DNA of 64,000 bases. It comes from Microvirga sp. (GTDB lineage Bacteria; Pseudomonadota; Alphaproteobacteria; Rhizobiales; Beijerinckiaceae). This document shows, piece after piece, positions 3,312 through 54,530 of this stretch. The notes below the pieces were generated by a model. The model ran no database searches. It had not been told where the DNA came from and saw nothing but the letters and a program-made list of their open reading frames with translations. How positions within the stretch are numbered: the stretch's first letter is position 1; each line of letters begins with the position of its first letter. The stretch is from contig JAYSGD010000020.1 of the NCBI GenBank assembly GCA_041913065.1, positions 1,354-65,353 on the forward strand. Reading direction: 5' to 3'. The position numbers were made by a program, and so were the translations under genes.

Positions 3312-3806
3312 ATGAAACTCGAAATCAGGAATGTAGCGCTCGCAGCCGTCGCAGCTCTCGGAATCGTCGCCGGAGGCACAAGCGCCCGCGCGGCCGATAT
3401 CGTCGATACGGCCGTCGCGGCCGGCCAGTTCAAGACCCTTGCGACCGCGCTGACCCAGGCGGGTCTCGTCTCGACTCTCAAGGGCTCCGGGCCCTTCACC
3501 GTCTTCGCCCCCACGGATGCGGCCTTCGCCAAGCTGCCCGCCGGAACGGTCGAGGACCTTCTGAAGCCGGAGAACAAGGACAAGCTCACCGCCATCCTCA
3601 CCTACCACGTCGTCCCCGGAAAGGTGATGGCGGCCGACGTCACCAAGCTTCAGCAAGCCAAGACGGTGAACGGCAAGGAGCTGAAGGTCAGCACGAAGGG
3701 CTCGGGCGTCATGATCAACGACGCCAGCGTCACGCAGACCGACATCGCGGCCTCGAACGGCGTCATCCACGTGGTCGATACCGTGATCCTGCCGCCGGCC
3801 AACTGA
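3312..3806 (+). CDS. secreted fasciclin (FAS1) domain protein
   Basis: 164 aa. Signal peptide ends ...[12 protein letters not shown]1 motifs are [24 protein letters not shown] and [13 protein letters not shown]. Confidence 0.85.
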
Positions 3807-3927
3807 TCCTGCGGCCTGGAGCGCGAGCCCCGGCGCTCCAGGCCTCTTTTCCGGTGCTCCGAAGCGTGGCATTGCGCCGTGGAGCGGCTATCATGGATCC
3901 AGTCGGCCCTGCCCAGGTTGACCATCC

Positions 3928-5271
3928 ATGGACCGCATCCGCAACATCCTCGCTCTCCTGCGCGCGCAGCTCTGGATCATTCCACTGACGGTCAGCGCGC
4001 TTGCCCTCGGTCTTGCCTGGTGGGTCCTGACCGATGGCTCCCTCCTCCTCGAACGCTGGTCCTCCGGAAGCGGATTCTGGTGGCTTTACGGAGGCGATGC
4101 CGAGTCGGCACGCGGCCTCCTTTCGAGCCTGCTCTCCGGGCTAATGACGATGACCTCGCTGATCGTGTCGGTCACTTTCGTCATTCTGACCCTGTCTGCG
4201 AACCAACTCGGCCCCCGCCTGATCTCGACCTTCATGGCGGATCGCCAGATCCAGATCGTGCTGGGCCTCTTCCTTGGCACGATCCTCTACGTGCTGGTGA
4301 TCCTGCGCAGCCTGGACGAGACTTTGGGCCGCGAGGGAGTGCCTCATGTTGCCGTCACGATTGGAAGCGCGCTGACGATCATCTGCCTCTTCGCGCTGCT
4401 GTTCTACGTTCACAAGATCGCCCGGTCGATCATTGCAGATAACGTTGTCGAGCGGGTGGCCGCCGATCTGCACCGCAACATTGCCGGGATGATGAAGGAT
4501 CGGAACGAAGAAGCCGCACAGCCGGAAATACTTGAGCCCGTCGCAGGGTCCATCGCGTTGGAACGGGTCGGCTACGTGCAGGTGGTCGACTACGATCACC
4601 TCGTGGAAATCGCATGTAGATCCGAGGCGATCCTGCGGGTCGATGTGAGGGCCGGCCATTTCGTGCTGCGCAACGGCGAACACGTGGTCGTCCACGGCCG
4701 CCGTTCCTTGGACGACGATGAAGTGGATGCCGTCAAAGCGGCCTTCGTGATCGGCGTGGAGCGAAGCCCGGCACAGGACTTGGAGTACGATCTGCGCCAG
4801 CTGGTCGAGATTGCTCTGCGAGCGCTGTCTCCCGGCATCAACGATCAATACACCGCCATTGCGGTCGTCAATCAGCTCGGCGCAGCCCTCGAGGAGATCT
4901 TTCAGCGCTCGCTGCCGCCGGTTCTCCTACGGGACAATTCCGGCGATGTGCGGGTCATCGCCCAGCGCTCGGACGCGCAAGGACTGATCGATGCGGCGTT
5001 CGACTCCATCCGCCAGTCCGGAAGCAGCGTTCCGGCGATCCTGATCAGGATCGCCGATGTCCTGGGCCAGCTCGCACCCGTCCTTCGGACCGAAGCCGAG
5101 AGACAGGCCGTCATGTCCCAGCTCGGCAAGCTCGAGGAAACCGCGAGCCAGTCCCCGGTGCCTCCCTGCGACCGTACAGCCATCCTGTCCCGCATCGCGC
5201 AAGCGACGGAATTGATCCCACGGACGCGGTCTTCGCCAAGCTGCCGACTGGAACGGTCGAGGACCTTCTGA
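3928..5271 (+). CDS. DUF2254-like integral membrane protein, with a C-terminus that appears chimeric
   Basis: 447 aa with four N-terminal TM helices and a soluble C-terminal domain. The family assignment is from memory. The last ~18 codons are read out of frame from a fasciclin gene fragment. Confidence 0.65.
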
Positions 5272-5345
5272 AGCCGGAGAACAAGGCCAAGCTCACCACC
5301 ATCCTGACCTACCATGTCGTCCCTGGACGTGTGATGGCGGCCAAC
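5217..5345 (+). pseudogene. internal fragment of a fasciclin-domain gene (paralog of 3312..3806)
   Basis: About 129 nt, roughly 90% identical by eye to 3509..3638. In its own frame it reads [43 protein letters not shown]. It has no start and no FAS1 C-terminal part. Confidence 0.8.
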
Positions 5346-5368
5346 CTTCTCCCCGTTTCAAAGCGCCT

Positions 5369-5800
5369 TCATCGTTCTACGCTGCGGCTGTTCGTCATGA
5401 CCTTTCGCAGGACTTCGAAAATCACCGCGGTTGACCACCCGAACAACAGGACGCCGTTCATCGCCGTCATTGGCCCAAGCAATTGCCAGCGCTCCGTCGG
5501 CGTCACGTCGCCGTAGCCGAGCGTCGTGTAGTTCACGAAGGAGAAGTAAATCAGGTCAGCATCTTCAGGTGCGGCGTCGAAGAATGCGTAGGCCATCGAC
5601 CAAACGAGCACCTCCGCCAGATGCGCGGCCATCAGGAACGATACCGTCGCGATCATAACGACGATCAACTGAACCGATTGACGTGACGTCGTGATCTCAA
5701 CGGCAGTCCGCGCCGCCCACATGACAGCCGCCATCAAGAGTGCATGGATGGCAATGTTGCAGAGGCTGACGGCGGCACCCACGAGAATTTGGCGCAACAT
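5369..5800 (-). CDS. two-TM potassium channel (Ion_trans_2 type)
   Basis: K+ selectivity filter [10 protein letters not shown] lies between two TM helices. I start it at the internal ATG ([11 protein letters not shown]...) because the longer ORF overlaps the upstream antiporter gene. Confidence 0.75.
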
Positions 5801-5823
5801 GCAGACCACTCCGGTAGGGCCGA

Positions 5824-6918
5824 TCACTGAACCTGGGGCGGCAACAGATACAGCGTCATCGCGAAAATCACGTACACCAGCAGAACCAGCACTCCGACGA
5901 ACCATGCCGAGCGTCCGCTATTTGTCACCAGGGACACAGTCATGCTGGCAATGAGCATCATGATCACCGCGCCCGGCCAGAACTGCAGGTTCATCGGCGC
6001 CGGGCCGATGACGTAGCTGAGAAGCACCAGCACCGGGGCGACGAAGAGCGCGATCTGGGCCGAGCTTCCCAGTGCGATGCCCACGCTCAGGTCCAGGCGG
6101 TCCTTGCGCGCGCCGGAGAAGGCCGAGGCCATCTCCGCCGCAGCGCCCACCAGCGCCACGACGACAAAACCCACGAATGCGGGAGTCATCCCGAATGCTA
6201 CAGCCGCTTGCTGCACGGATTCGATGAAAACCTCGCTCACCAGCGCGACCAGGATGGTGACGCCGGCCAGCGTGGTCAGGGCCAAGCCCATCGGCCACGG
6301 CGTCTCGCCGATTTCGGCATGATCGGCACTCCCGAAAAATTCGCGATGCGTCTTGAGGGTGAACAGCAGGCCCAATCCATAGGCCACGATGAGCAGCGCG
6401 GACAGGCTCACGCTCAACTTGTCGGTAAACCCTGACCCCGCCGCGGAATCGGCTTCAGAGACAGCCGACGGAATCAATAACGCAATCGTGGCCAGGAAGA
6501 GCAGGCCCGCTTGTAGACGGGCGTTGCCCCGGTTGTATTCCTGCACATGATGCTTGAGCCCGCCGAGGAAAAACGACGCGCCCAACATGAATAACGAGTT
6601 GGTGACGATCGCCCCGGCGATGGATGCCTTCACGAGCGCATATTGCCCGGCGCGCAGCGCAGCCAGCGCGATGATCAGCTCCGTCAGGTTTCCGAGCGTG
6701 GCGTTGAGCAGCCCCCCGACCGCGTCGCCTGTCTTGGAAGCGACGGATTCGGTGGCGTGGCTCAACAGCACGGCCAGCGGCACGATGGCCAGAACGGACA
6801 GCACGAAGAGCAGCGTGTGTGCTTCAGGCGCGATCACGTGGGCGGCGAGGACCGCAGGCACAAAGACCAGGAGCCAGAGAGCGGGATTGCGACGGATCTC
6901 TCCAAGCAAAGGTTTCAT
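5824..6918 (-). CDS. Ca2+/H+ antiporter (CaCA family, ChaA/Cax-like)
   Basis: 364 aa with about 10-11 TM helices. Two alpha-repeat motifs are present (GNLTELIIALAALRAG and GAAAEMASAFSGARK). Confidence 0.85.
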   Translation of the reverse strand: MKPLLGEIRRNPALWLLVFVPAVLAAHVIAPEAHTLLFVLSVLAIVPLAVLLSHATESVASKTGDAVGGLLNATLGNLTELIIALAALRAGQYALVKASIAGAIVTNSLFMLGASFFLGGLKHHVQEYNRGNARLQAGLLFLATIALLIPSAVSEADSAAGSGFTDKLSVSLSALLIVAYGLGLLFTLKTHREFFGSADHAEIGETPWPMGLALTTLAGVTILVALVSEVFIESVQQAAVAFGMTPAFVGFVVVALVGAAAEMASAFSGARKDRLDLSVGIALGSSAQIALFVAPVLVLLSYVIGPAPMNLQFWPGAVIMMLIASMTVSLVTNSGRSAWFVGVLVLLVYVIFAMTLYLLPPQVQ

Positions 6919-7093: not shown

Positions 7094-7141
7094 AGAGCAT
7101 TTTTTTCGGTGAAGTGGATCCGGTTCACCGTCAAAAAATGC
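7094..7141. repeat. hairpin repeat with GTGGATCCGG loop (REP-like; same family as 29126..29155 and 59487..59510)
   Basis: Arms TTTTTTCGGTGAA / TTCACCGtcAAAAAA flank the loop gtggatccgg. The other two copies carry the reverse-complement loop CCGG(G/A)TCCAC. Confidence 0.6.
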
Positions 7142-7218
7142 GGCCCAGCAAAGAAGGGAGCTGATTCCATGCAAATGGAAACAGCTCTAAGCCAAAGGCG
7201 ATCAACGGAGAGAGCTAT

Positions 7219-7261
7219 GTTCCTATTTTGTTCTTGACTCTTGTCCTAATCTTGGCTATAA
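7219..7261 (+). promoter_or_regulatory. LexA (SOS) box fused to a sigma-70 promoter, copy 1
   Basis: GTTCCTATTTTGTTC at 7219-7233 is a perfect alphaproteobacterial GTTC-N7-GTTC direct repeat. It abuts CTTGAC (7233-7238), followed by N17 and CTATAA (7256-7261). Confidence 0.7.
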
Positions 7262-7268
7262 CATTCGC

Positions 7269-7603
7269 AGCCTGATCCATCGAGGGGCGCTTTCGCGAGG
7301 CGTCGTGACTGTGGGACCAGGCACGGTCCCGTGAGCCAGCTAACGCAGGCTGGTTCGACGGGAGGCCCCGGCGAGAGGCTGGGCTCCGCTCTGGTCCAAG
7401 GCCGCCCGTATCAAGACGGTGTCCGCCTTGGGCAGAGCTGGGGCCATGTCGCGCCGGTCCGCCTAAAAAAGCCGTGCGCGAAGTGCAGCTCTGCTCTTCA
7501 AACACAAACATCATCGAGCCGGGCTGCCCATCGCGCCACCCTCGATTGCCTTCAAGGCTCCCGGCTGTCTTCAGCCCGGAGCCCGCAGGCGCATGCCGTT
7601 TTT
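7269..7603 (+). ncRNA. candidate LexA-controlled structured RNA or long structured leader, copy 1 (family not recognised)
   Basis: It starts about 7 nt after the -10 element. It is homologous to 53953..~54285, with 124 nt identical (7357-7480). Several strong helices are present and one hairpin is compensated between the copies. There is no conserved ORF. A hairpin at 7556-7583 is followed by a T5 tract at 7599-7603. The ends are estimates. Confidence 0.5.
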
Positions 7604-7643
7604 CCAAGCCATTTGTTTCAACATCGATTGCCGAGGCTGTTCC

Positions 7644-7910
7644 ATGACCAGGAGCCGTACCGAAATTGCTCTTTCCCGCATGCCCGACCCCGACGATGCC
7701 CTCCGGCGTCTGGCCGACGTGCTGCGGATGCCGGCCGAGTGCCGCAAGCGCAGCTGCCGCACCGATGGCCGCTGCCAGGGCGGCTATGGGCCACCATGCT
7801 TCTTCCACCGGCGCGAGTTCTTCTCCGATGCATTGCGGGATCGCATGCCCGAGTACCGGGACATGTGGGACGAGCACCGCACCACCGTGCGGCAGATGAT
7901 GCGGGGATGA
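7644..7910 (+). CDS. small Cys-rich hypothetical protein (88 aa)
   Basis: GAGG lies 7 nt upstream of the ATG. Third-position GC is strongly elevated. The sequence contains CRKRSCRTDGRCQGGYGPPC. I recognise no family. Confidence 0.6.
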   Translation: MTRSRTEIALSRMPDPDDALRRLADVLRMPAECRKRSCRTDGRCQGGYGPPCFFHRREFFSDALRDRMPEYRDMWDEHRTTVRQMMRG

Positions 7911-7941
7911 GGGGAAGGCGCAGTATGGCTGCCTCGCCGTC

Positions 7942-8130
7942 ATGGCCGGCCTTGTGCCGGCCATCCCGATCGGAAGAGTGCGACGCTTCAAGGCCGGTGA
8001 TCCCGATGCCTTGAAGCGTCGCAAGCTCAGTGATCGTCCTGGACGAAGCGCAGCGAGGATCCGGGATCGCCGGCAGGATCAAGCCCCGCTCATGTTGGAC
8101 GATCCCGGGTTCCGCTATGCGGCCCCGGGA
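7942..8130. repeat. cluster of GC-rich palindromic intergenic repeats
   Basis: A 9-bp-stem hairpin ATGGCCGGC/GCCGGCCAT lies at 7942-7964. A perfect 15-bp inverted repeat GCGACGCTTCAAGGC/GCCTTGAAGCGTCGC lies at 7980-7994 and 8008-8022. The GATCCGGGATCGC motif is also seen at about 51410. Confidence 0.6.
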
Positions 8131-8164
8131 TGACGCGTTGGGCGCTGGCGAGGTGAAGTCCCCC

Positions 8165-8623
8165 TCAGCCCTTGGGCAGCATGTCCTTCACGAGGCCGCT
8201 GGCCTTGGCGAAGTCCATCTGGCCGACATACTTGGCGCGAAGCGCGGCCACGACCTTGCCCATGTCCTTCATGGAGGCTGCACCCGTCTCGGCGATGGCG
8301 GCTTCGATCGCGGCCTTGGTCTGGGCCTCGTCCATCTGCTGCGGAAGGTAGGAGGAGATGACGGCGACCTCGTTCTTCTCCTGGTCGGCGAGCTCCTGGC
8401 GTCCGCCCTGCTCGTACATGGTGATCGATTCCTGGCGCTGCTTCACCATTTTCTGGAGGAGAGCGAGGATTTCCTCGTCGGAGAGCGGCTCCTTGCCGTT
8501 GCCCCGGGCCTCGATGTCCTTGTCCTTGAGGGCGGCCTGGATCAGGCGGATCGCGCCAAGCCTGCCCTTATCGCCGGCCTTCATGGCCTCTTTCATCTCA
8601 GCGGTGAATCGTTCGCGCAGCAT
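8165..8623 (-). CDS. GatB/YqeY domain protein
   Basis: 152 aa. The sequence MLRERFTAEMKEAMKAGDKGRLGAIRLIQAALKDKDIE... is the typical YqeY family pattern. Confidence 0.9.
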   Translation of the reverse strand: MLRERFTAEMKEAMKAGDKGRLGAIRLIQAALKDKDIEARGNGKEPLSDEEILALLQKMVKQRQESITMYEQGGRQELADQEKNEVAVISSYLPQQMDEAQTKAAIEAAIAETGAASMKDMGKVVAALRAKYVGQMDFAKASGLVKDMLPKG

Positions 8624-49632: not shown

Positions 49633-49884
49633 TCAGCCTTGTCGCTCCTGCCTCAGCTGATCGATCCGCTTCGAGGCTTCGGCCTTGTCGAGTTTGGGAT
49701 CATAGGCGTCGGGATCATGCGCCTGCTCGGAGAGGGTCTTCAGGTAGGATGCCTGCGCTCCGGTCATCGGCTCATGGCCGCTTACCCATTCCTCCGGGTC
49801 CTTGATCTGGTTGTCCACGGGTGTCGGATTTGCCTTGGGATTATCGATGTCCTTCGCCTTGCGCGCCTTGGTGTCGGAAGACAT
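49633..49884 (-). CDS. DUF3072 domain protein
   Basis: 83 aa. EPMTGAQASYLKTLSEQAHDPDAYDPKLDKAEASKRIDQL. GGAG Shine-Dalgarno upstream. Confidence 0.7.
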   Translation of the reverse strand: MSSDTKARKAKDIDNPKANPTPVDNQIKDPEEWVSGHEPMTGAQASYLKTLSEQAHDPDAYDPKLDKAEASKRIDQLRQERQG

Positions 49885-49898
49885 AGGAGACTCCTATT

Positions 49899-49913
49899 GT
49901 TCTCATTTTGTTC
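49899..49913. promoter_or_regulatory. LexA (SOS) box
   Basis: GTTCTCATTTTGTTC is a perfect GTTC-N7-GTTC, 15 nt from the DUF3072 start codon in the divergent intergenic region. Confidence 0.65.
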
Positions 49914-50027
49914 TGGAACGAGAACACCGGATTCAGGCCATTGGTTCCGCAAAGGAAAGAGTGGCTACTCCCGCGGACTCATCCCCGTTATCCACAGAAG
50001 TCACGCTCGACTCCCCGCCAAGCTTAT

Positions 50028-50042
50028 GTTCTTATTTTGTTC
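50028..50042 (+). promoter_or_regulatory. LexA (SOS) box
   Basis: GTTCTTATTTTGTTC is a perfect match, 24 nt upstream of the GTG start of the Y-family polymerase. Confidence 0.7.
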
Positions 50043-50065: not shown

Positions 50066-51310
50066 GTGCGCAAGCCAACTGGCCTGGAGCGGCTTTATGT
50101 CGACTTCGACTCCTTCTTCGCCAGCGCCGAGCAGCATCTCCAATCGCATCTGCGCGGCCGGCCGGTGGGCGTCATTCCGGTCGACTCGGAGCATACCGGG
50201 CTGATCGCGGTCAGCCGGGAGGCCAAGGCGCTCGGCATCAAGCGCGGGGCTTTCGTCCGCGATATCCGGCGTCAATGGCCGGGTGTGATTCTCGTGACGG
50301 CCCGGCACGAGGTTTACGTGGAGCTTCACAAGGCGATCTGCAAAGCCATCGAGACGGTCGTGCCCGTCAAGGCCGTCTGCTCCATCGATGAAATGCTCTG
50401 CGCGCTCCTGCCCTCGGAGCAGGCGCAAGCGATAGCCATCGGCCGCAGGGTGAAGGACACCATCGCCACTCTGATCGGCCCCACCCTCACCTGCTCCGTG
50501 GGCCTTGGGCCAAACGATCTGCTCGCCAAGATCGCCGCCGAAATGGAAAAGCCCGACGGGCTCGTCGCCATCCACCCGAGCGACCTTCCCGACCGTCTCC
50601 TGTCGCTCGACCTCACCGACATCCCCGGCATCGCCAAGGGCAACGCGGCCCGCCTCGCCCGCGCCGGCGTCGGGGACGTGGCGGCGCTTCTGAAGCTTCA
50701 GCCCAAGGAGCTGCGCCGTCTCTGGGGCAGCGTGGAGGGCGAAAGGCTCTGGATGGGGCTGCACGGCTACACGGTGGAGCGGCCCGAAACGCAGCGCCGC
50801 ATGTTCGGCCATGGCCGCGTGCTGCCGGCCGATTGGCGGCATCTGGGCGGCGCCTATGCCGCCGCCCGCGTCCTGCTGATGAAAGCCTCGCGCCGCATGC
50901 GCCGCTCGGGCTTCGCCGCCCGCGCGCTCGCCCTGTGGCTCACCGACAGGCACAGCGCCGGCTGGTATGGCGAAGAACGGTTTCTCGCGACCTGGGACGA
51001 CCCCTCGTTTCTCGCCTCCTTGAGCCGCCTCTTCCTCCATGCGGAACGGGAGGGCATGGGCCGGAGCCGCAGCGTTCACATCACCCTGCACGATCTGGTG
51101 CCCATGCGCGACATCGAGCAGGATCTGTTCGGCTACACGGCCGAGGCGCAGCTCAAGCGGCGCATGGAATACCTGTCGGCGGTCGCGGACAGGCTCAATA
51201 CGGCACACCAGAAGACGCTTCTGCACTGGGGCCCGCTCATCGACATTCCCGGCGGCTATGCGGGCGCGAAGATCGCGTTCAACCGCATTCCCGACGCGGA
51301 GGACTTTTGA
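50066..51310 (+). CDS. Y-family (DinB/ImpB-type) translesion DNA polymerase
   Basis: GTG start chosen downstream of the LexA box. The catalytic motif is LYVDFDSFFASAEQ. Also contains SIDEMLC and a little-finger region. The N-terminal 88 codons of the track ORF are rejected. Confidence 0.85.
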   Translation: MRKPTGLERLYVDFDSFFASAEQHLQSHLRGRPVGVIPVDSEHTGLIAVSREAKALGIKRGAFVRDIRRQWPGVILVTARHEVYVELHKAICKAIETVVPVKAVCSIDEMLCALLPSEQAQAIAIGRRVKDTIATLIGPTLTCSVGLGPNDLLAKIAAEMEKPDGLVAIHPSDLPDRLLSLDLTDIPGIAKGNAARLARAGVGDVAALLKLQPKELRRLWGSVEGERLWMGLHGYTVERPETQRRMFGHGRVLPADWRHLGGAYAAARVLLMKASRRMRRSGFAARALALWLTDRHSAGWYGEERFLATWDDPSFLASLSRLFLHAEREGMGRSRSVHITLHDLVPMRDIEQDLFGYTAEAQLKRRMEYLSAVADRLNTAHQKTLLHWGPLIDIPGGYAGAKIAFNRIPDAEDF

Positions 51311-51782: not shown

Positions 51783-53811
51783 TCAGACGATGAGGAAATC
51801 CGCCGCCGAGAGCGCGGCCTTGTTGGCGATCTTCATGATCTCGACCGGCTTGTATTTCGCGCCGTTGCCGTCGGCATCGTAGGAGACCACGCCGCTCTTG
51901 TAGATCAGGTAGTCGTTCTTGTCCGTCGCCTTGGTCTTCTTGAAGAACTTCTTGTTCAGGGTTCCTGGCGCCTCCATCGTGCCCTTGCCGAGCTTCTTGA
52001 AGATCTTGTTGTCGAGCAGGATCTTGTCCTCGCCGCGCGTGAAATCGGTGATCGTGTCGAAGTTCACCTTGCGGTCCGTCTTCCAGGTGCCGGGCTTGGC
52101 ATCGAACACGAACCGGTCCGCGCCGGCGCCGCCGGTGAGCACATCATTGCCTGACTTGCCGTAGAGCTTGTCGTCGCCGGCCCCACCGGTCAGCGTGTTC
52201 TTCGCCTTCGTGCCGATGAGGGTCTGACCCGCTGGAGAGGCTCCAGGAGGCGTGCTTCCGGCGGGTGCGGGCACTGGCCCATTTTGATCCGTGAGATGTT
52301 CAATGCCGTTAGCCCTCAGCAGGGCAATATCGGCGGCACTGAAAATGCCATTCGTCAAAATGATATGGTCGTTGGCTGTCGAATGCCCTCGCATAAGGCG
52401 CGCTGTTTCCATGGAGTCGACCCCAACGACCGTACCGTTCTTGGCAAAATCGATGATTTCCACGTTCATGAAATATTTGTCGCTGAGATCGAAGACGGCT
52501 CCGTTCAGTCGCACAATGTCCTTGCCGTCGGTCGATTGCCCCCCTCAGATCGATGACACGAACATCCTCCATGGAGTTCGGAGCTATCATGACGGTTTCG
52601 TCTCTGTTCGAGCCCCTGACGGCATCGACGCTACGAAGATAGCCATCGTGAATATTGAACGAACCACCGCCGCTGAGGAAGAGAGTATTGTCTCCATCTC
52701 CGCCGTAAATTCCGTTGAAGGGAAGCTGGAGTCCTTCTCTCGTCGAGAAGAAATTCACGCGGTCTCTACCAACGCCTTTCCATTCTGCGGGCATTTCAAA
52801 CTGTGTGCCGTTTGGAGCGACAGTTGCCTGGACGACTGCCCGATCCGTCCGGTTCTCGTTATCGACCACAATGACTTCGATCTGCCTTTCCGAAACTTGG
52901 AAGGCATCGGTGTTGGTGTACGTCAACGCTCGCAACACCTCCTGCACGCGCGCACTGGTTGCGTTGTTGTTGAATGCTATCTCGAGACCGGCTGCTGACA
53001 GGTTTGAGACTGAGCCAATAACCGTGCCTTCGACGAGAATGTTTGTGCCTTTCGCCATAGGACCCGAGAGGCTTACAGCGCTGTCTGTGGCTGTACGAAT
53101 TCCGTATACATCGAAGATGTCGTGGAAACCGGTCGTTCGCACGGTGAGGGATTTCATGTAGGGAGCCGAACCTTGGAAGAGCAACTCGGCGCCTTGATCC
53201 AGCAGGCCCGGATTGCCGGCCTCCGTCTGCATCCTATCATTGTGAAAATTGTTCATGAGCGGCCTGGGGTTCACATGGTCGCCGCTCTCATCCCGCAAAT
53301 AAATCACGCCTCGTTCATAAAGTGCGAGCCTCTGAGCTTCGGAGAAAGTTCCCTCTGAAAGGGTGACGTACACACTGTTATAGGGGCTGACTTTCACGAG
53401 CATCGCGGTTTCAAAATCGCGAACAACGATGCGCGCCGGCGTAACAGCCGAGAACATCGAGTACGTGATCTCATGAATGTTGCTCAGCGTCAGATCGGTA
53501 AGATCCAGATCGTCGCCGTAGAACAGCAGCGTGTTGTATCCTGTGCCGCCTTTGATATGCTTGAGCTTTGGAAGGACATCCCTTCCGAGTTGAAAGATCG
53601 TGTCTCCAGTTGCTCCCTCAATCGTTTCGATGCTCGTGATGTTCAAGTCGTAAAGACGAACATATCCTGCTTCATTGATCTTCAAGGTATCGTTGCCGGC
53701 GCCGCCGTCGAAACGGCCAAGAATATTGGGGCCGACGATGTGGACGTCATCTCCGTCGCTTCCCGTCCATTCCTCGTATGTTTCAGAGGCAAGGCCTAGC
53801 GGTGACGTCAT
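51783..53811 (-). pseudogene. RTX-type calcium-binding secreted protein gene interrupted by a 1-nt frameshift in a G6 run
   Basis: ORFs 52309..53811 and 51783..52514 are one reading frame if one G is removed from the run at 52539-52544. The C-terminus has GGAGDDKLYGKSGNDVLTGGAGADRFVF nonapeptide repeats and a T1SS-like tail. GC is clearly lower than in the surroundings. Confidence 0.7.
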
Positions 53812-53902
53812 CGAAAGCTCCTAAGTAAACATTCCTTGTGTAATAATGTACCTAAGAATTTACTTTGTCTATCAAGGGTCTCTGGTTGACCATCCAGCAC
53901 AT

Positions 53903-53946
53903 GTTCCTATTTTGTTCTTGACAAGGTTCCTAAGCTTGGCTATGGG
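53903..53946 (+). promoter_or_regulatory. LexA (SOS) box fused to a sigma-70 promoter, copy 2
   Basis: GTTCCTATTTTGTTC at 53903-53917 is identical to 7219-7233. It is followed by TTGACA (53918-53923), N17 and TATGGG (53941-53946). Confidence 0.65.
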
Positions 53947-53952
53947 TGGCTT

Positions 53953-54285
53953 GGCCCGATCCACCGAGGGGCGCTCTCGCGAGGCGTCGTGATGGTGGGA
54001 TCGGGCACGGTCCCGTGCGGAGGATGACGCAATCCCCCGTGACGGGAGGCCCCGGCGAGAGGCTGGGCTCCGCTCTGGTCCAAGGCCGCCCGTATCAAGA
54101 CGGTGTCCGCCTTGGGCAGAGCTGGGGCCATGTCGCGCCGGTCCGCCTAAAAAAGCCGTGCGCGGGGAGCCGTTTGGTTCTTCACTCACACTAGCCGAGC
54201 CGGACGCCTCCTCGCGCCCCCTCGACCTCAAACCCTCGGGCGAGCCGCGCCGCGAGGATACTCCCGCTCGTTCTTTGAAAATCAC
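53953..54285 (+). ncRNA. candidate LexA-controlled structured RNA, copy 2
   Basis: Collinear with copy 1 at a constant offset of 46684 nt up to 54164. 54041-54164 is identical to 7357-7480. The hairpin at 54018-54039 differs in sequence from copy 1 but still folds. The 3' end is an estimate (T-rich tract at 54271-54276). Confidence 0.45.
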
Positions 54286-54287
54286 AT

Positions 54288-54400
54288 GCCCTTCCGTCAT
54301 GGCCGTCCCCGGACTTGATCCGGGGATTGATCCGGCCACTCACGTCTTCCACCGCGTCAAGGCGTGGATCCCCTCAACAAGTGCGGGGATGACGGAGCAA
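54288..54400. repeat. palindromic intergenic repeat (CCGTCAT...ATGACGG type)
   Basis: CCGTCATGGCCGTCCCCGGActtgaTCCGGGG ... GCGGGGATGACGG. It is related to the ATGGCCGGC..GCCGGCCAT elements near 7942. Confidence 0.5.
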
Positions 54401-54530
54401 ACGACCTACTAGCCGATCGCCGCGTCAAGGTTTTCTTCCCCCCGCTGCGCTTCGGCCAGGAATGACACCTTGTTCTGACACGCTGACCCGCCTCGTGCCG
54501 TCGATCACGACACTGGCGAGCCCAGCGCCT

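Follow-up and report, generated by a model that had tools for sequence, protein, structure and literature searches.

The analysed window, a 64,000-nt stretch of a contig from Microvirga, a member of the Methylobacteriaceae/Beijerinckiaceae, contains two copies of a unit in which a predicted LexA operator, a promoter and a structured RNA follow one another on the same strand; in the first copy a small open reading frame (ORF) is found downstream. The main features, with their coordinates in the window, are:

7217..7233, + strand: predicted LexA operator of copy 1, ATGTTC-N6-TGTTC, sharing its last base with the start of the -35 element
7233..7261, + strand: promoter of copy 1, CTTGAC (7233-7238), a 17-nt spacer and CTATAA (7256-7261), with a predicted start at about 7267-7270
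7268..7546, + strand: structured RNA core, copy 1, identified by covariance model R1 (282.8 bits), covariation and RNAalifold
7556..7603, + strand: 3' module with the P7 hairpin (7556-7583), a mini-hairpin GGC-GCAT-GCC (7588-7597) and T5 (7599-7603); terminator-like, not canonical
7644..7910, + strand: small ORF (88 aa, pI 9.6), supported by tblastn and homologue searches; conserved partner gene of the RNA
53901..53917, + strand: predicted LexA operator of copy 2, a perfect match, overlapping the -35 element
53917-53922 and 53940-53945, + strand: promoter of copy 2, CTTGAC and CTATGG, with the geometry of copy 1 and a weaker -10 element
53952..54226, + strand: structured RNA core, copy 2, with helices P1-P6 as in copy 1 (R1 239.6 bits)

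The two copies are collinear at an offset of 46684, with 226 of 262 positions identical across 7219-7480, and their homology begins exactly at the operator. Identity is unevenly distributed: only 67 of the 95 positions of 7262-7356 are shared, and the longest identical run spans exactly 124 nt (7357-7480). Alignment of both copies confirms the collinearity, the offset and the 124-nt identity reported in the original prediction. The 124-nt stretch had also been taken as the conserved part of the transcript: between species, no part of the family varies more, and recent gene conversion is the simpler reading of the identity. A protein partner shared by the two copies was considered as the cause of their identical hairpins and rejected, as the hairpins of two M. 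calopogonii units, L003 and L089, differ. The feature most conspicuous in one genome may therefore be the least conserved of its family. Copy 2 differs from copy 1 by compensatory changes in P1, in the P4 hairpin and in P6, and has neither homology to P7/P8 nor a small ORF downstream.

The operator sequence GTTCCTATTTTGTTC occurs at 7219-7233 and again at 53903-53917. The perfect alphaproteobacterial SOS box, the adjoining CTTGAC-N17-CTATAA and the repetition of this geometry at the second locus are all present as originally described. With the Caulobacter LexA consensus, (T/A)TGTTC(N6)TGTTC (quoted in PMC13384398), as reference, TGTTC-N6-TGTTC is found four times in the window, against 0.04 expected, and none of 100 shuffles reaches four. 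The remaining two operators flank a DUF3072 gene and a Y-family polymerase gene, the latter located 42 kb from the unit. In all 14 Microvirga units GTTC-N7-GTTC abuts TTGAC at a fixed position, with a varying operator spacer. By the placement and the conservation of their operators, both loci would belong to the alphaproteobacterial LexA regulon. Scanning with an E. coli-type promoter model did not call the copy 1 promoter, because the last base of its -10 element is not T. TTGAC-N17-(C)TATA is nevertheless common to all homologues, including those devoid of a LexA box.

Full-length homologues of the RNA were found in other Microvirga genomes (14) and four distinct, divergent ones in related metagenome-assembled genomes (MAGs); overall, the RNA occurs in more than 14 species, and some genomes hold two units. 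The family is described by model R1, which represents the core and not the full-length RNA, and by the pattern CGAGGGGCGCNNTCRYGAGGCGTC. The divergent (type-II) group has no LexA box, one locus featuring GTTC-N7-GTGC. As judged from these operators, the LexA link is specific to Microvirga, and not a property of the whole RNA family; the function of the RNA would therefore not be intrinsically tied to DNA damage. Genomic contexts vary: SIR2/nSTAND genes are found near one unit (L082), ThsB-TIR and a recombinase near another (L085), an integrase near a third (L093), and many units sit among ordinary housekeeping genes.

Searches in databases returned no described family. With Rfam 15, neither the whole window nor 10 homologous loci gave any match at the gathering threshold; in E-value mode the best hit reached 18 bits (E = 0.6), where the threshold is 48, the rest being chance-level eukaryotic families. 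ARAGORN found no tRNA or tmRNA in the window. The absence of Rfam 15 and ARAGORN matches agrees with the earlier statement that the RNA is not RNase P, tmRNA, 6S, SRP, a riboswitch or a named alphaproteobacterial sRNA. No match was obtained by blastn against plasmids and phages, by the conserved-block pattern in viral contigs, or for the RNA in the literature searched. The 22-mer CCGTATCAAGACGGTGTCCGCC and the pseudo-peptides VQGRPYQD and LGQSWGHV matched nothing in metagenome, viral and genome collections; these scans, seeded in the core, were empty because nothing in the family varies more than the core hairpin.

The RNA is about 270-350 nt long, some 330 nt for the gene in this genome, with a core of about 280 nt containing five covarying helices. 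The elements of copy 1 are the following:

7270-7278/7314-7322, + strand: P1, the 5' hairpin, carrying the invariant block
7281-7305, + strand: invariant block CGAGGGGCGC..TCGCGAGGCGTCG
7323-7327/7471-7475, + strand: P3
7328-7362, + strand: P4 with an ACGCA-loop hairpin
7363-7366/7461-7464, + strand: P5, bearing a peripheral hairpin of variable length
7367..7460, + strand: long peripheral hairpin, 100% identical in copy 2, varying in length and sequence between species
7465-7470, + strand: A-rich junction strand
7476-7536, + strand: P6, the 3' hairpin domain
7497..7515, + strand: P6 apical loop, G-poor and C/A-rich, variable in sequence and unpaired in every homologue
7539-7546, + strand: CCCTCGAT, following P6

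In the covariation-supported fold, P3, P4 and P5 make a three-way junction. In three species the peripheral hairpin is replaced by a 5-bp stem with a TGAAAGAC loop. Inside P1, the block CGAGGGGCGC..UCGCGAGGCGUCG is invariant, and the invariant CCCUCG after P6 may form a pseudoknot with the 5' CGAGGG. The CGAGGG/CCCTCG closing helix does not covary in homologues, because both strands are nearly invariant; for the same reason covariation gives no verdict either on the pseudoknot or on pairing inside P1. The palindrome UCGCGA becomes UCAUGA in the divergent group. Kissing-loop dimerisation is not needed as an explanation, since a local hairpin with UCGUGA, using G-U pairs, accommodates the same changes.

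Compensatory changes are well above controls. In the alignment of 14 sequences, 97.4% of the cells are paired and 23 of the 45 pairs changed on both sides; shuffles yield 10.5 +/- 1.9 (0 of 500 reach 23), and slid controls 4-5. An independent MAFFT alignment features 18 compensatory pairs out of 64, against 10.7 +/- 1.9. Folded as a single sequence, 7262-7610 greatly exceeds shuffled sequences in stability (z = -5.45), and the fold contains the hairpin proposed at 7388-7438. G-U pairs, both invariant and frequent, are compatible with the + strand only, so that the conserved structure is assigned to this strand. The claim of a structured transcript is thereby strengthened, although two of its four proposed helices are replaced: in 11 homologues neither GGGACC/GGTCCC nor CGCGC/GCGCG is backed by a compensatory change, and their strands belong to the covariation-supported P1 and to P6 with the variable hairpin. 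In the 3' module, the hairpin at 7556-7583 and the T5 tract at 7599-7603 are as described; the former, P7, is supported by four pairs with compensatory changes, and a run of 3-5 T is present at this position in all full-length Microvirga members examined. The module was not called by a simple terminator scan.

Duplicated or mobile GC-rich intergenic DNA, devoid of function and folding by virtue of its base composition, might also give helices: GC-rich sequences fold readily, and the 124-nt identity points to recent gene conversion. This explanation is hardly tenable, being already contradicted by the occurrence of the RNA in more than 14 species with compensatory changes above both shuffled and slid controls, by the conservation of promoter and operator, by the stability of the fold, and by the absence of terminal inverted and tandem repeats. 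No flanking inverted repeats were found at the units, and no reverse transcriptase or transposase adjoins them, their neighbours including genes for a Ca2+ exchanger, YqeY and IlvE; the units resemble neither a mobile element (MITE/IS) nor a retron RNA.

No reading frame conserved across the RNA homologues was found. The distance between GGAGGCC and CGCCTAA is 33, 40, 103, 105 or 107 nt, covering all residues modulo 3; the frame running through the conserved 3' block differs between homologues, all three being represented, and in some members stops are present in every frame. With no conserved frame, and a core spacing that varies by non-multiples of three, the non-coding nature claimed for the RNA is borne out; the TAA at 7259-7261 and the ATG-initiated ORF of six codons in the core are also as described. 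Two coding alternatives were rejected. A hidden peptide ending at the invariant CGCCTAA, suggested in three species by an SD-like GGAGG followed by a short frame, is incompatible with distances varying by non-multiples of three, and the segment forms a hairpin in which compensatory changes occur. An upstream ORF coupled to the small ORF via ATGA agrees in frame in just four of nine loci.

The small ORF, in contrast, encodes a conserved protein. Its homologues are basic, 86-150 aa long, and share four invariant cysteines, C-x4-C-x5-C-x7-C, with the motif CQGG[YF]GPPC. The protein of the window contains 20% arginine, has a GRAVY of -1.06 and, with a maximum 19-residue hydropathy of -0.22, no hydrophobic segment. 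These properties, together with its pI and the four cysteines, would fit a nucleic-acid-binding protein. No sequence match was found in Pfam, NCBIfam, PADLOC, PHROGs or PDB, and an exact-protein look-up returned no record. The structure model, of low confidence (pLDDT 64), gave no Foldseek match and no known RNA-binding fold.

RNA and protein are closely linked. The gene lies directly downstream of the RNA in most loci, including those of the divergent group, and wherever enough upstream DNA is available for a homologue of the small protein, it contains the RNA. The linkage persists at about 40% protein identity, where R1 still scores 44-60 bits (E 1e-11 to 1e-16). RNA subtypes match protein subtypes, which could be simple co-inheritance. 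In Microvirga a hairpin and a U-tract separate the RNA from the ORF, while in the divergent group the RNA continues straight into its start codon.

Such an arrangement would also suit a riboswitch, or another attenuator responding to a ligand, located in the 5' UTR of the gene for the small protein. Its aptamer would consist of the conserved junctions; the expression platform would be P7/P8 and the U-tract in Microvirga, and the ribosome-binding-site region in the divergent group; copies without the ORF would be leftovers or decoys. Wherever the ORF is found, the RNA lies 5' of it and points the same way, which speaks for this explanation, as do the highly conserved junction and loop nucleotides, combined with peripheral stems of varying length, and the 3' elements just mentioned, a hairpin with a U-run or an RNA reaching the start codon. 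Alternative pairings are possible as well: the 3' strand of P1 may pair with the 5' strands of P3/P4 (94% pairable, without covariation). We regard this explanation as possible but doubtful: the terminator is non-canonical, a core of about 280 nt would make a large aptamer, no ligand is suggested by the regulated gene, and in several species RNA-only copies persist, with intact promoter, LexA box and compensated helices.

Three such RNA-only copies are known: copy 2 of the window, L003 and L058. Box, promoter and fold are preserved in all three, and no gene follows on the same strand. They score 239.6 (window copy 2), 226 and 157 bits with R1, full units scoring 160-283 bits, and their helices are kept through compensatory changes, which speaks for an RNA that functions with no ORF in cis. 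In both genomes with an RNA-only copy for which a check was possible, a full unit is present too (the genome of the window, and M. calopogonii with L003 and L089). The original prediction had left the choice between a free sRNA and a leader of the 7644 ORF. Each half proves partly true: the RNA is linked to homologues of this ORF throughout the family, and RNA-only copies are maintained as well.

A free RNA may act in trans by base pairing, as an SOS-induced sRNA having its seed in the P6 loop or in another unpaired segment, with the small ORF as a co-transcribed passenger. SOS-induced sRNAs are known elsewhere: IstR-2 of E. coli is an SOS-induced regulatory sRNA, and the Klebsiella cell-division sRNA is reportedly the SOS-induced DinR. 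Maintained RNA-only copies would be expected, the conserved scaffold displays an unstructured C/A-rich loop of 17-24 nt, and the 3' hairpins with the U-run resemble sRNA 3' ends. Yet the candidate seed lacks conservation even among members of the genus, no site complementary to it is present in the 64-kb window, typical base-pairing sRNAs are much smaller and less elaborate in their fold, and a passenger would hardly stay linked down to about 40% protein identity; on balance this role is unlikely. The variable loops were also considered as guides for nearby DNA, a possibility rejected as no matches were found in the window.

Less likely still is a toxin-antitoxin-like or defence-linked cassette in which the small protein and the RNA counteract each other, following the logic of LexA-controlled type I modules such as tisB and dinQ, or of type III modules with an RNA antitoxin. 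It would account for the presence of several copies, for RNAs without an ORF and for the changing genomic positions: orphan copies do exist, some genomes have two units, some units lie beside defence-type or mobile genes (L082, L085, L093), and the LexA box, long structured leader and small ORF form an architecture of this kind. Type I toxins, however, are small, hydrophobic, membrane-active proteins, usually of less than 60 aa with a transmembrane helix; the protein found here is hydrophilic and has no membrane segment, and is therefore not a type I toxin. In ToxIN-like type III systems the antitoxin RNA is encoded as tandem direct repeats before the toxin gene; no tandem repeats are present in 7100-8200, which excludes a system of this type. 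In addition, no PADLOC family matches, no antisense or trans antitoxin RNA was noticed, and many contexts consist of ordinary housekeeping genes.

Our preferred explanation, to which we assign a probability of about 0.45, is that of a structured RNA derepressed in the SOS response, acting as partner and/or leader of the small protein. The RNA would be transcribed from a housekeeping-type promoter, whose -35 element is overlapped, in Microvirga, by the LexA operator. In undamaged cells LexA would block the promoter; upon DNA damage, RecA-stimulated cleavage of LexA would release it. The RNA would be protein-binding, forming a complex with the small protein and/or serving as its autoregulatory leader; it would also accumulate in free form, ending at the U-tract, and RNA-only copies, such as copy 2 of the window, would supply additional RNA in trans. 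Against this explanation, a riboswitch or attenuator would account just as well for the location ahead of the ORF, the terminator-like module and the varying peripheral stems.

Taken together, the sequences look like a new damage-inducible RNA/protein module. Its two components provide experimental handles: a predicted on-switch, the LexA operator, with mitomycin C or UV as expected inducers, and a conserved, unannotated protein partner with four invariant cysteines. Since the same module occurs with a LexA operator in one lineage and without it in another, it also offers a case of regulatory rewiring. To our knowledge, the SOS response of alphaproteobacteria is otherwise described in terms of proteins; if RNA and protein act together after damage, an RNA-based component would be added to it. 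A more ambitious proposal, of which we are rather doubtful, is that a new class of large structured RNA, with a three-way junction clamped by a pseudoknot, and a new Cys4 protein family form a dedicated ribonucleoprotein (RNP), wired to the SOS response in Microvirga. If true, this would be a DNA-damage-inducible RNP with an activity of its own (ligand sensing, catalysis, or the sequestering of a repair or replication factor), and neither an ordinary leader nor a base-pairing sRNA. As far as we know, large bacterial RNAs supported by covariation and falling outside all described families are rare; once studied, such RNAs often turn out to be ribozymes, riboswitches or RNP components.

Among known systems, E. 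coli tisB/istR-1 and dinQ/agrB are similar in combining a promoter-located LexA operator with a long structured 5' region before a small ORF; in tisB and dinQ the fold of the primary transcript governs the expression of the small protein. They have no sequence or Rfam relationship to the RNA described here, whose associated product is hydrophilic, arginine-rich and of Cys4 type instead of a membrane peptide, and which is also maintained without the ORF. Autoregulatory leaders and riboswitch 5' UTRs likewise feature a conserved multi-helix RNA directly upstream of one gene family, with variable peripheral stems, conserved junction nucleotides and a 3' hairpin/U-tract or ribosome-binding-site region; unlike them, our RNA matches no Rfam 15 family, is conserved in stand-alone copies and carries an SOS operator on its unit. 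With SOS-induced sRNAs, such as DinR of Klebsiella and IstR-2 of E. coli, our RNA would share a synthesis switched on when LexA is cleaved. Those sRNAs are short base-pairing RNAs, while a core of about 280 nt, with five covarying helices and no conserved seed, is found here. A cell-division sRNA of Klebsiella is the subject of PMC10907235. Finally, the promoters of the alphaproteobacterial LexA regulon share with the Microvirga units the GTTC-N7-GTTC direct repeat and its overlap with the -35 element; other genes of this regulon encode repair, mutagenesis or cell-division proteins, whereas the product of these units is a structured RNA with an uncharacterised small protein.

Seeds from the 124-nt core identical in the two window copies had no match in metagenome, viral and genome collections. 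A protein scan with the neighbouring YqeY/GatB-like protein yielded 80 syntenic loci, where blastn and nhmmer located the element 3' of yqeY in six other species, in all six with GTTC-N7-GTTC fused to TTGAC; beyond yqeY, the region is otherwise non-syntenic. No RNA was found in the yqeY neighbourhood of the Methylobacterium and Bosea loci examined, and the family appears narrowly distributed, in Microvirga and close relatives. Two weak matches to R1, the covariance model of the RNA core, lie in the direction of carA, about 350-500 nt 5' of the start of yqeY (L002 4506-4647, L015 4506-4624 (- strand); 18.6 and 13.6 bits, E 0.002-0.05), and are probably GC-rich hairpins that arose by chance.

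The single-sequence fold of 7262-7610 is far stabler than shuffled sequences (z = -5.45), and RNAalifold predicts the same architecture from 8 and from 11 sequences. With 11 sequences aligned by MAFFT, 95.6% of the cells pair and both sides have changed in 18 of 64 pairs; shuffles give 10.7 +/- 1.9 (0 of 500 reach 18) and slid controls 6-8. When 14 sequences are aligned by R1, including two from the divergent group (related MAG loci with a longer small-protein subfamily), 97.4% of the cells pair and 23 of 45 pairs are doubly changed (shuffles 10.5 +/- 1.9, 0 of 500; slides 4-5). The latter alignment, being fitted to the model, leans towards it, while the MAFFT result is free of such bias. Covariation above controls in both alignments supports the structured transcript of the original prediction, whose items are all present where it placed them. 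The features of the fold are the following:

7270-7278 / 7314-7322, + strand: P1, with 6 covarying pairs
7323-7327 / 7471-7475, + strand: P3
7328-7362, + strand: P4, closing a hairpin; stem wholly different between copies 1 and 2, ACGCA loop kept
7363-7366 / 7461-7464, + strand: P5, bearing the peripheral hairpin
7465-7470, + strand: A-rich strand
7476-7536, + strand: P6, with a G-poor apical loop of 17-24 nt
7556-7583, + strand: P7

P1 and P6 are formed independently by every sequence in single-sequence folds. The structure is assigned to the + strand, since on the opposite strand the invariant G-U pairs, and the pairs alternating between G-C and G-U, would turn into A-C mismatches. Two helices proposed earlier, GGGACC/GGTCCC and CGCGC/GCGCG, show no compensatory change and are abandoned, their strands jointly belonging to P1, P3/P4 and P6. 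Of the proposed domain-closing helix, nothing survives except CGAGGG/CCCUCG: its strands are near-invariant across the whole family, divergent group included, and often pair in single-sequence folds, with no covariation for or against. This helix would cross P1, and would therefore be a pseudoknot; it is one of three alternatives for pairing within P1, the others being GGCGC/GCGUC and UCGCGA/UCGUGA. The palindrome UCGCGA, which becomes UCAUGA in the divergent group, is still self-complementary there; a local hairpin also fits through G-U pairs.

The two window copies are indeed collinear (offset 46684), with 226 of 262 positions identical over 7219-7480 and a longest identical run of exactly 124 nt (7357-7480). 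This core, formerly regarded as the conserved part, corresponds to the peripheral P5 hairpin and its surroundings, and between species is the most variable part of the family. Three species feature, in place of the peripheral hairpin, a 5-bp stem with a TGAAAGAC loop, the short stem itself covarying; in M. calopogonii the peripheral hairpins differ between its two paralogues. The flanks are about 70% identical (just 67 of 95 positions directly before the core), and against this background recent gene conversion is the best reading of the 124-nt identity within the window genome.

No reading frame is conserved in the RNA across homologues, in agreement with its proposed non-coding nature: the conserved GGAGGCC and CGCCTAA lie 33, 40, 103, 105 or 107 nt apart, three different frames run through the conserved 3' block, and of 9 loci just 4 have the GTG-initiated frame in register with the small ORF. 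Nor did the window and ten homologous loci match Rfam 15, at gathering or relaxed thresholds, as anticipated; ARAGORN found nothing. The literature searched on LexA- or SOS-linked structured RNAs and on Microvirga RNA motifs offers no counterpart, and neither LexA/SOS nor the Microvirga clade comes up in two large, recent surveys of bacterial structured RNAs. The structured RNA family is real and previously undescribed.

Both copies carry GTTCCTATTTTGTTC (7219-7233 and 53903-53917), which perfectly matches the Caulobacter LexA consensus defined by experiment, (T/A)TGTTC(N6)TGTTC (quoted in PMC13384398); 3' of the box come CTTGAC-N17-CTATAA (copy 1) and CTTGAC-N17-CTATGG (copy 2). TGTTC-N6-TGTTC is found four times in the window, versus 0.04 expected. 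The other two matches (49898-49913 and 50027-50042) are intergenic, perfect operators, flanked by two divergent genes:

49633-49884, - strand: DUF3072 gene, on one side of the operator pair
about 50066-51310, + strand: Y-family (IMS) DNA polymerase gene, on the other side

These genes are likely a divergent SOS-controlled pair, and the region between them is an expected site for a real SOS operator. At the RNA, the operator occupies the same place, with differing spacers, in 14 of 14 Microvirga units examined (the two window copies, L003, L004, L005, L012, L013, L058, L082, L083, L085/L086, L089, L098). Divergent loci feature a good promoter of CTTGAC-N17-CTATAT type and an A/T-rich upstream region, with no LexA operator at the promoter in those examined; one such unit without a canonical box (L096, about 2655-2680) has a near-operator, GTTCCCGTTCTGTGC (GTTC-N7-GTGC), between -35 and -10. 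Judged from this distribution, LexA control is lineage-specific, and the RNA/protein module is older than its recruitment to the SOS regulon. LexA binding and damage induction of the RNA are predictions, based on the operator known from alphaproteobacteria and on its being conserved at this site.

The small ORF (7644-7910, + strand, 88 aa) is conserved at the protein level 3' of the element in L004, L005, L012 and L013. Of the database homologues, 16 at first and 115 with a profile, most belong to named species of Microvirga; MAGs labelled 'Beijerinckiaceae bacterium' and 'Microvirga sp.' account for a longer subfamily. The protein is basic, arginine-rich and devoid of hydrophobic segments, with four invariant cysteines (C-x4-C-x5-C-x7-C, motif CQGG[YF]GPPC). 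It has no match in Pfam, NCBIfam, PADLOC, PHROGs and PDB, and is previously undescribed; its AlphaFold model is all-helical, at low confidence. On contigs of nine homologues, the RNA lies directly 5' of every one with enough upstream DNA, which bears out the suggested link to this ORF; in the divergent subfamily, where the protein is about 40% identical, the RNA is still upstream, as full-length R1 matches (44-60 bits, E 1e-11 to 1e-16). In Microvirga units, the start codon is preceded by a conserved ATTGCCG(G)AGG. Neighbourhoods vary from locus to locus, so that only the RNA and the small ORF make up the conserved unit.

Some units have defence-type or mobile genes as neighbours, encoding a SIR2_2/nSTAND NTPase protein (L082), a ThsB-TIR protein and a serine recombinase (L085), or a tyrosine integrase (L093); other units lie among housekeeping genes. 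A direct repeat, CACCCTCGATTGCC (7537-7550, after P6) and CAACATCGATTGCC (7619-7632), recurs just before the small-ORF Shine-Dalgarno. Two strong palindromes are located 3' of the ORF (7939-7965 and 7979-8023): CATGGCCGGCC..GCCGGCCATC, and the perfect 16-bp inverted repeat TGCGACGCTTCAAGGC/GCCTTGAAGCGTCGCA. The CATGGCCGGCC..GCCGGCCATC type, found at 87-90% identity in other Microvirga loci (L011, L020 and L058), resembles a REP-type intergenic repeat.

No small ORF accompanies window copy 2, L003 (M. calopogonii) or L058, nor does one follow the partial copy in L006, a M. lupini scaffold, where an assembly gap (about 100 N, about 6811-6909) leaves only the 3' domain readable; L020 retains a decayed 3' remnant of the RNA. 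The RNA-only cores of copy 2, L003 and L058 score like full units (239.6, 226 and 157 bits by R1). Since operator and promoter are retained in these copies, and the changes that separate them are compensatory, they are under selection for the fold. A full unit is present elsewhere in both checkable genomes (window, copy 1; M. calopogonii, L089). On the same strand, RNA-only copies are followed by intergenic repeat sequence and a convergent gene. A similar repeat, CGTCATGGCCG...GGCCAC.CACGTCTT...GTCAAG.CGTGGATCCCC, at 54290-54420 after copy 2 and at about 5700-5860 (- strand) in L058, may be a trace of the rearrangement in which the small ORF was lost. Divergent to copy 2 lies a 500-aa protein (52309-53811, - strand) with no Pfam match and a GGAGNDTL-like motif, adjoining a 243-aa ORF (51783-52514, - strand) with, by eye, hemolysin-type Ca-binding-like GG.G.D repeats; a protein annotated HemolysinCabind follows the L082 unit (3726-5765). 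Their proximity may be a coincidence.

What the data establish is a non-coding element on the + strand, structured and conserved, whose promoter is conserved too and in Microvirga carries a LexA operator; genetically, the element is coupled to a small basic Cys4 protein. As a hypothesis for its mechanism, the RNA would be SOS-induced and end, as a free RNA, at the P7/P8/U-tract module (7556-7603), with partial read-through into the small ORF, as the terminator is non-canonical. We propose that it binds the small protein, as a ribonucleoprotein and/or an autoregulatory leader, which would account for the ancient linkage, the maintenance of RNA-only copies in protein-encoding genomes, and the protein's composition. 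It would also account for an elaborate fold without a conserved seed. The main rival, a riboswitch or attenuator for some ligand, fits the upstream position of the RNA and its variable peripheral stems, but RNA-only copies less well. A base-pairing sRNA and non-functional DNA are less likely.

By comparison with known systems, the unit has neither the hydrophobic toxin that defines type I toxin-antitoxins nor the tandem RNA repeats that define type III, and a toxin-antitoxin or defence cassette is less likely; the defining features of any curated RNA family are likewise absent. In logic, the unit is closest to LexA-controlled type I toxin mRNAs, with their long structured leaders, to leaders of the protein-binding or riboswitch type, and to sRNAs induced by the SOS response.
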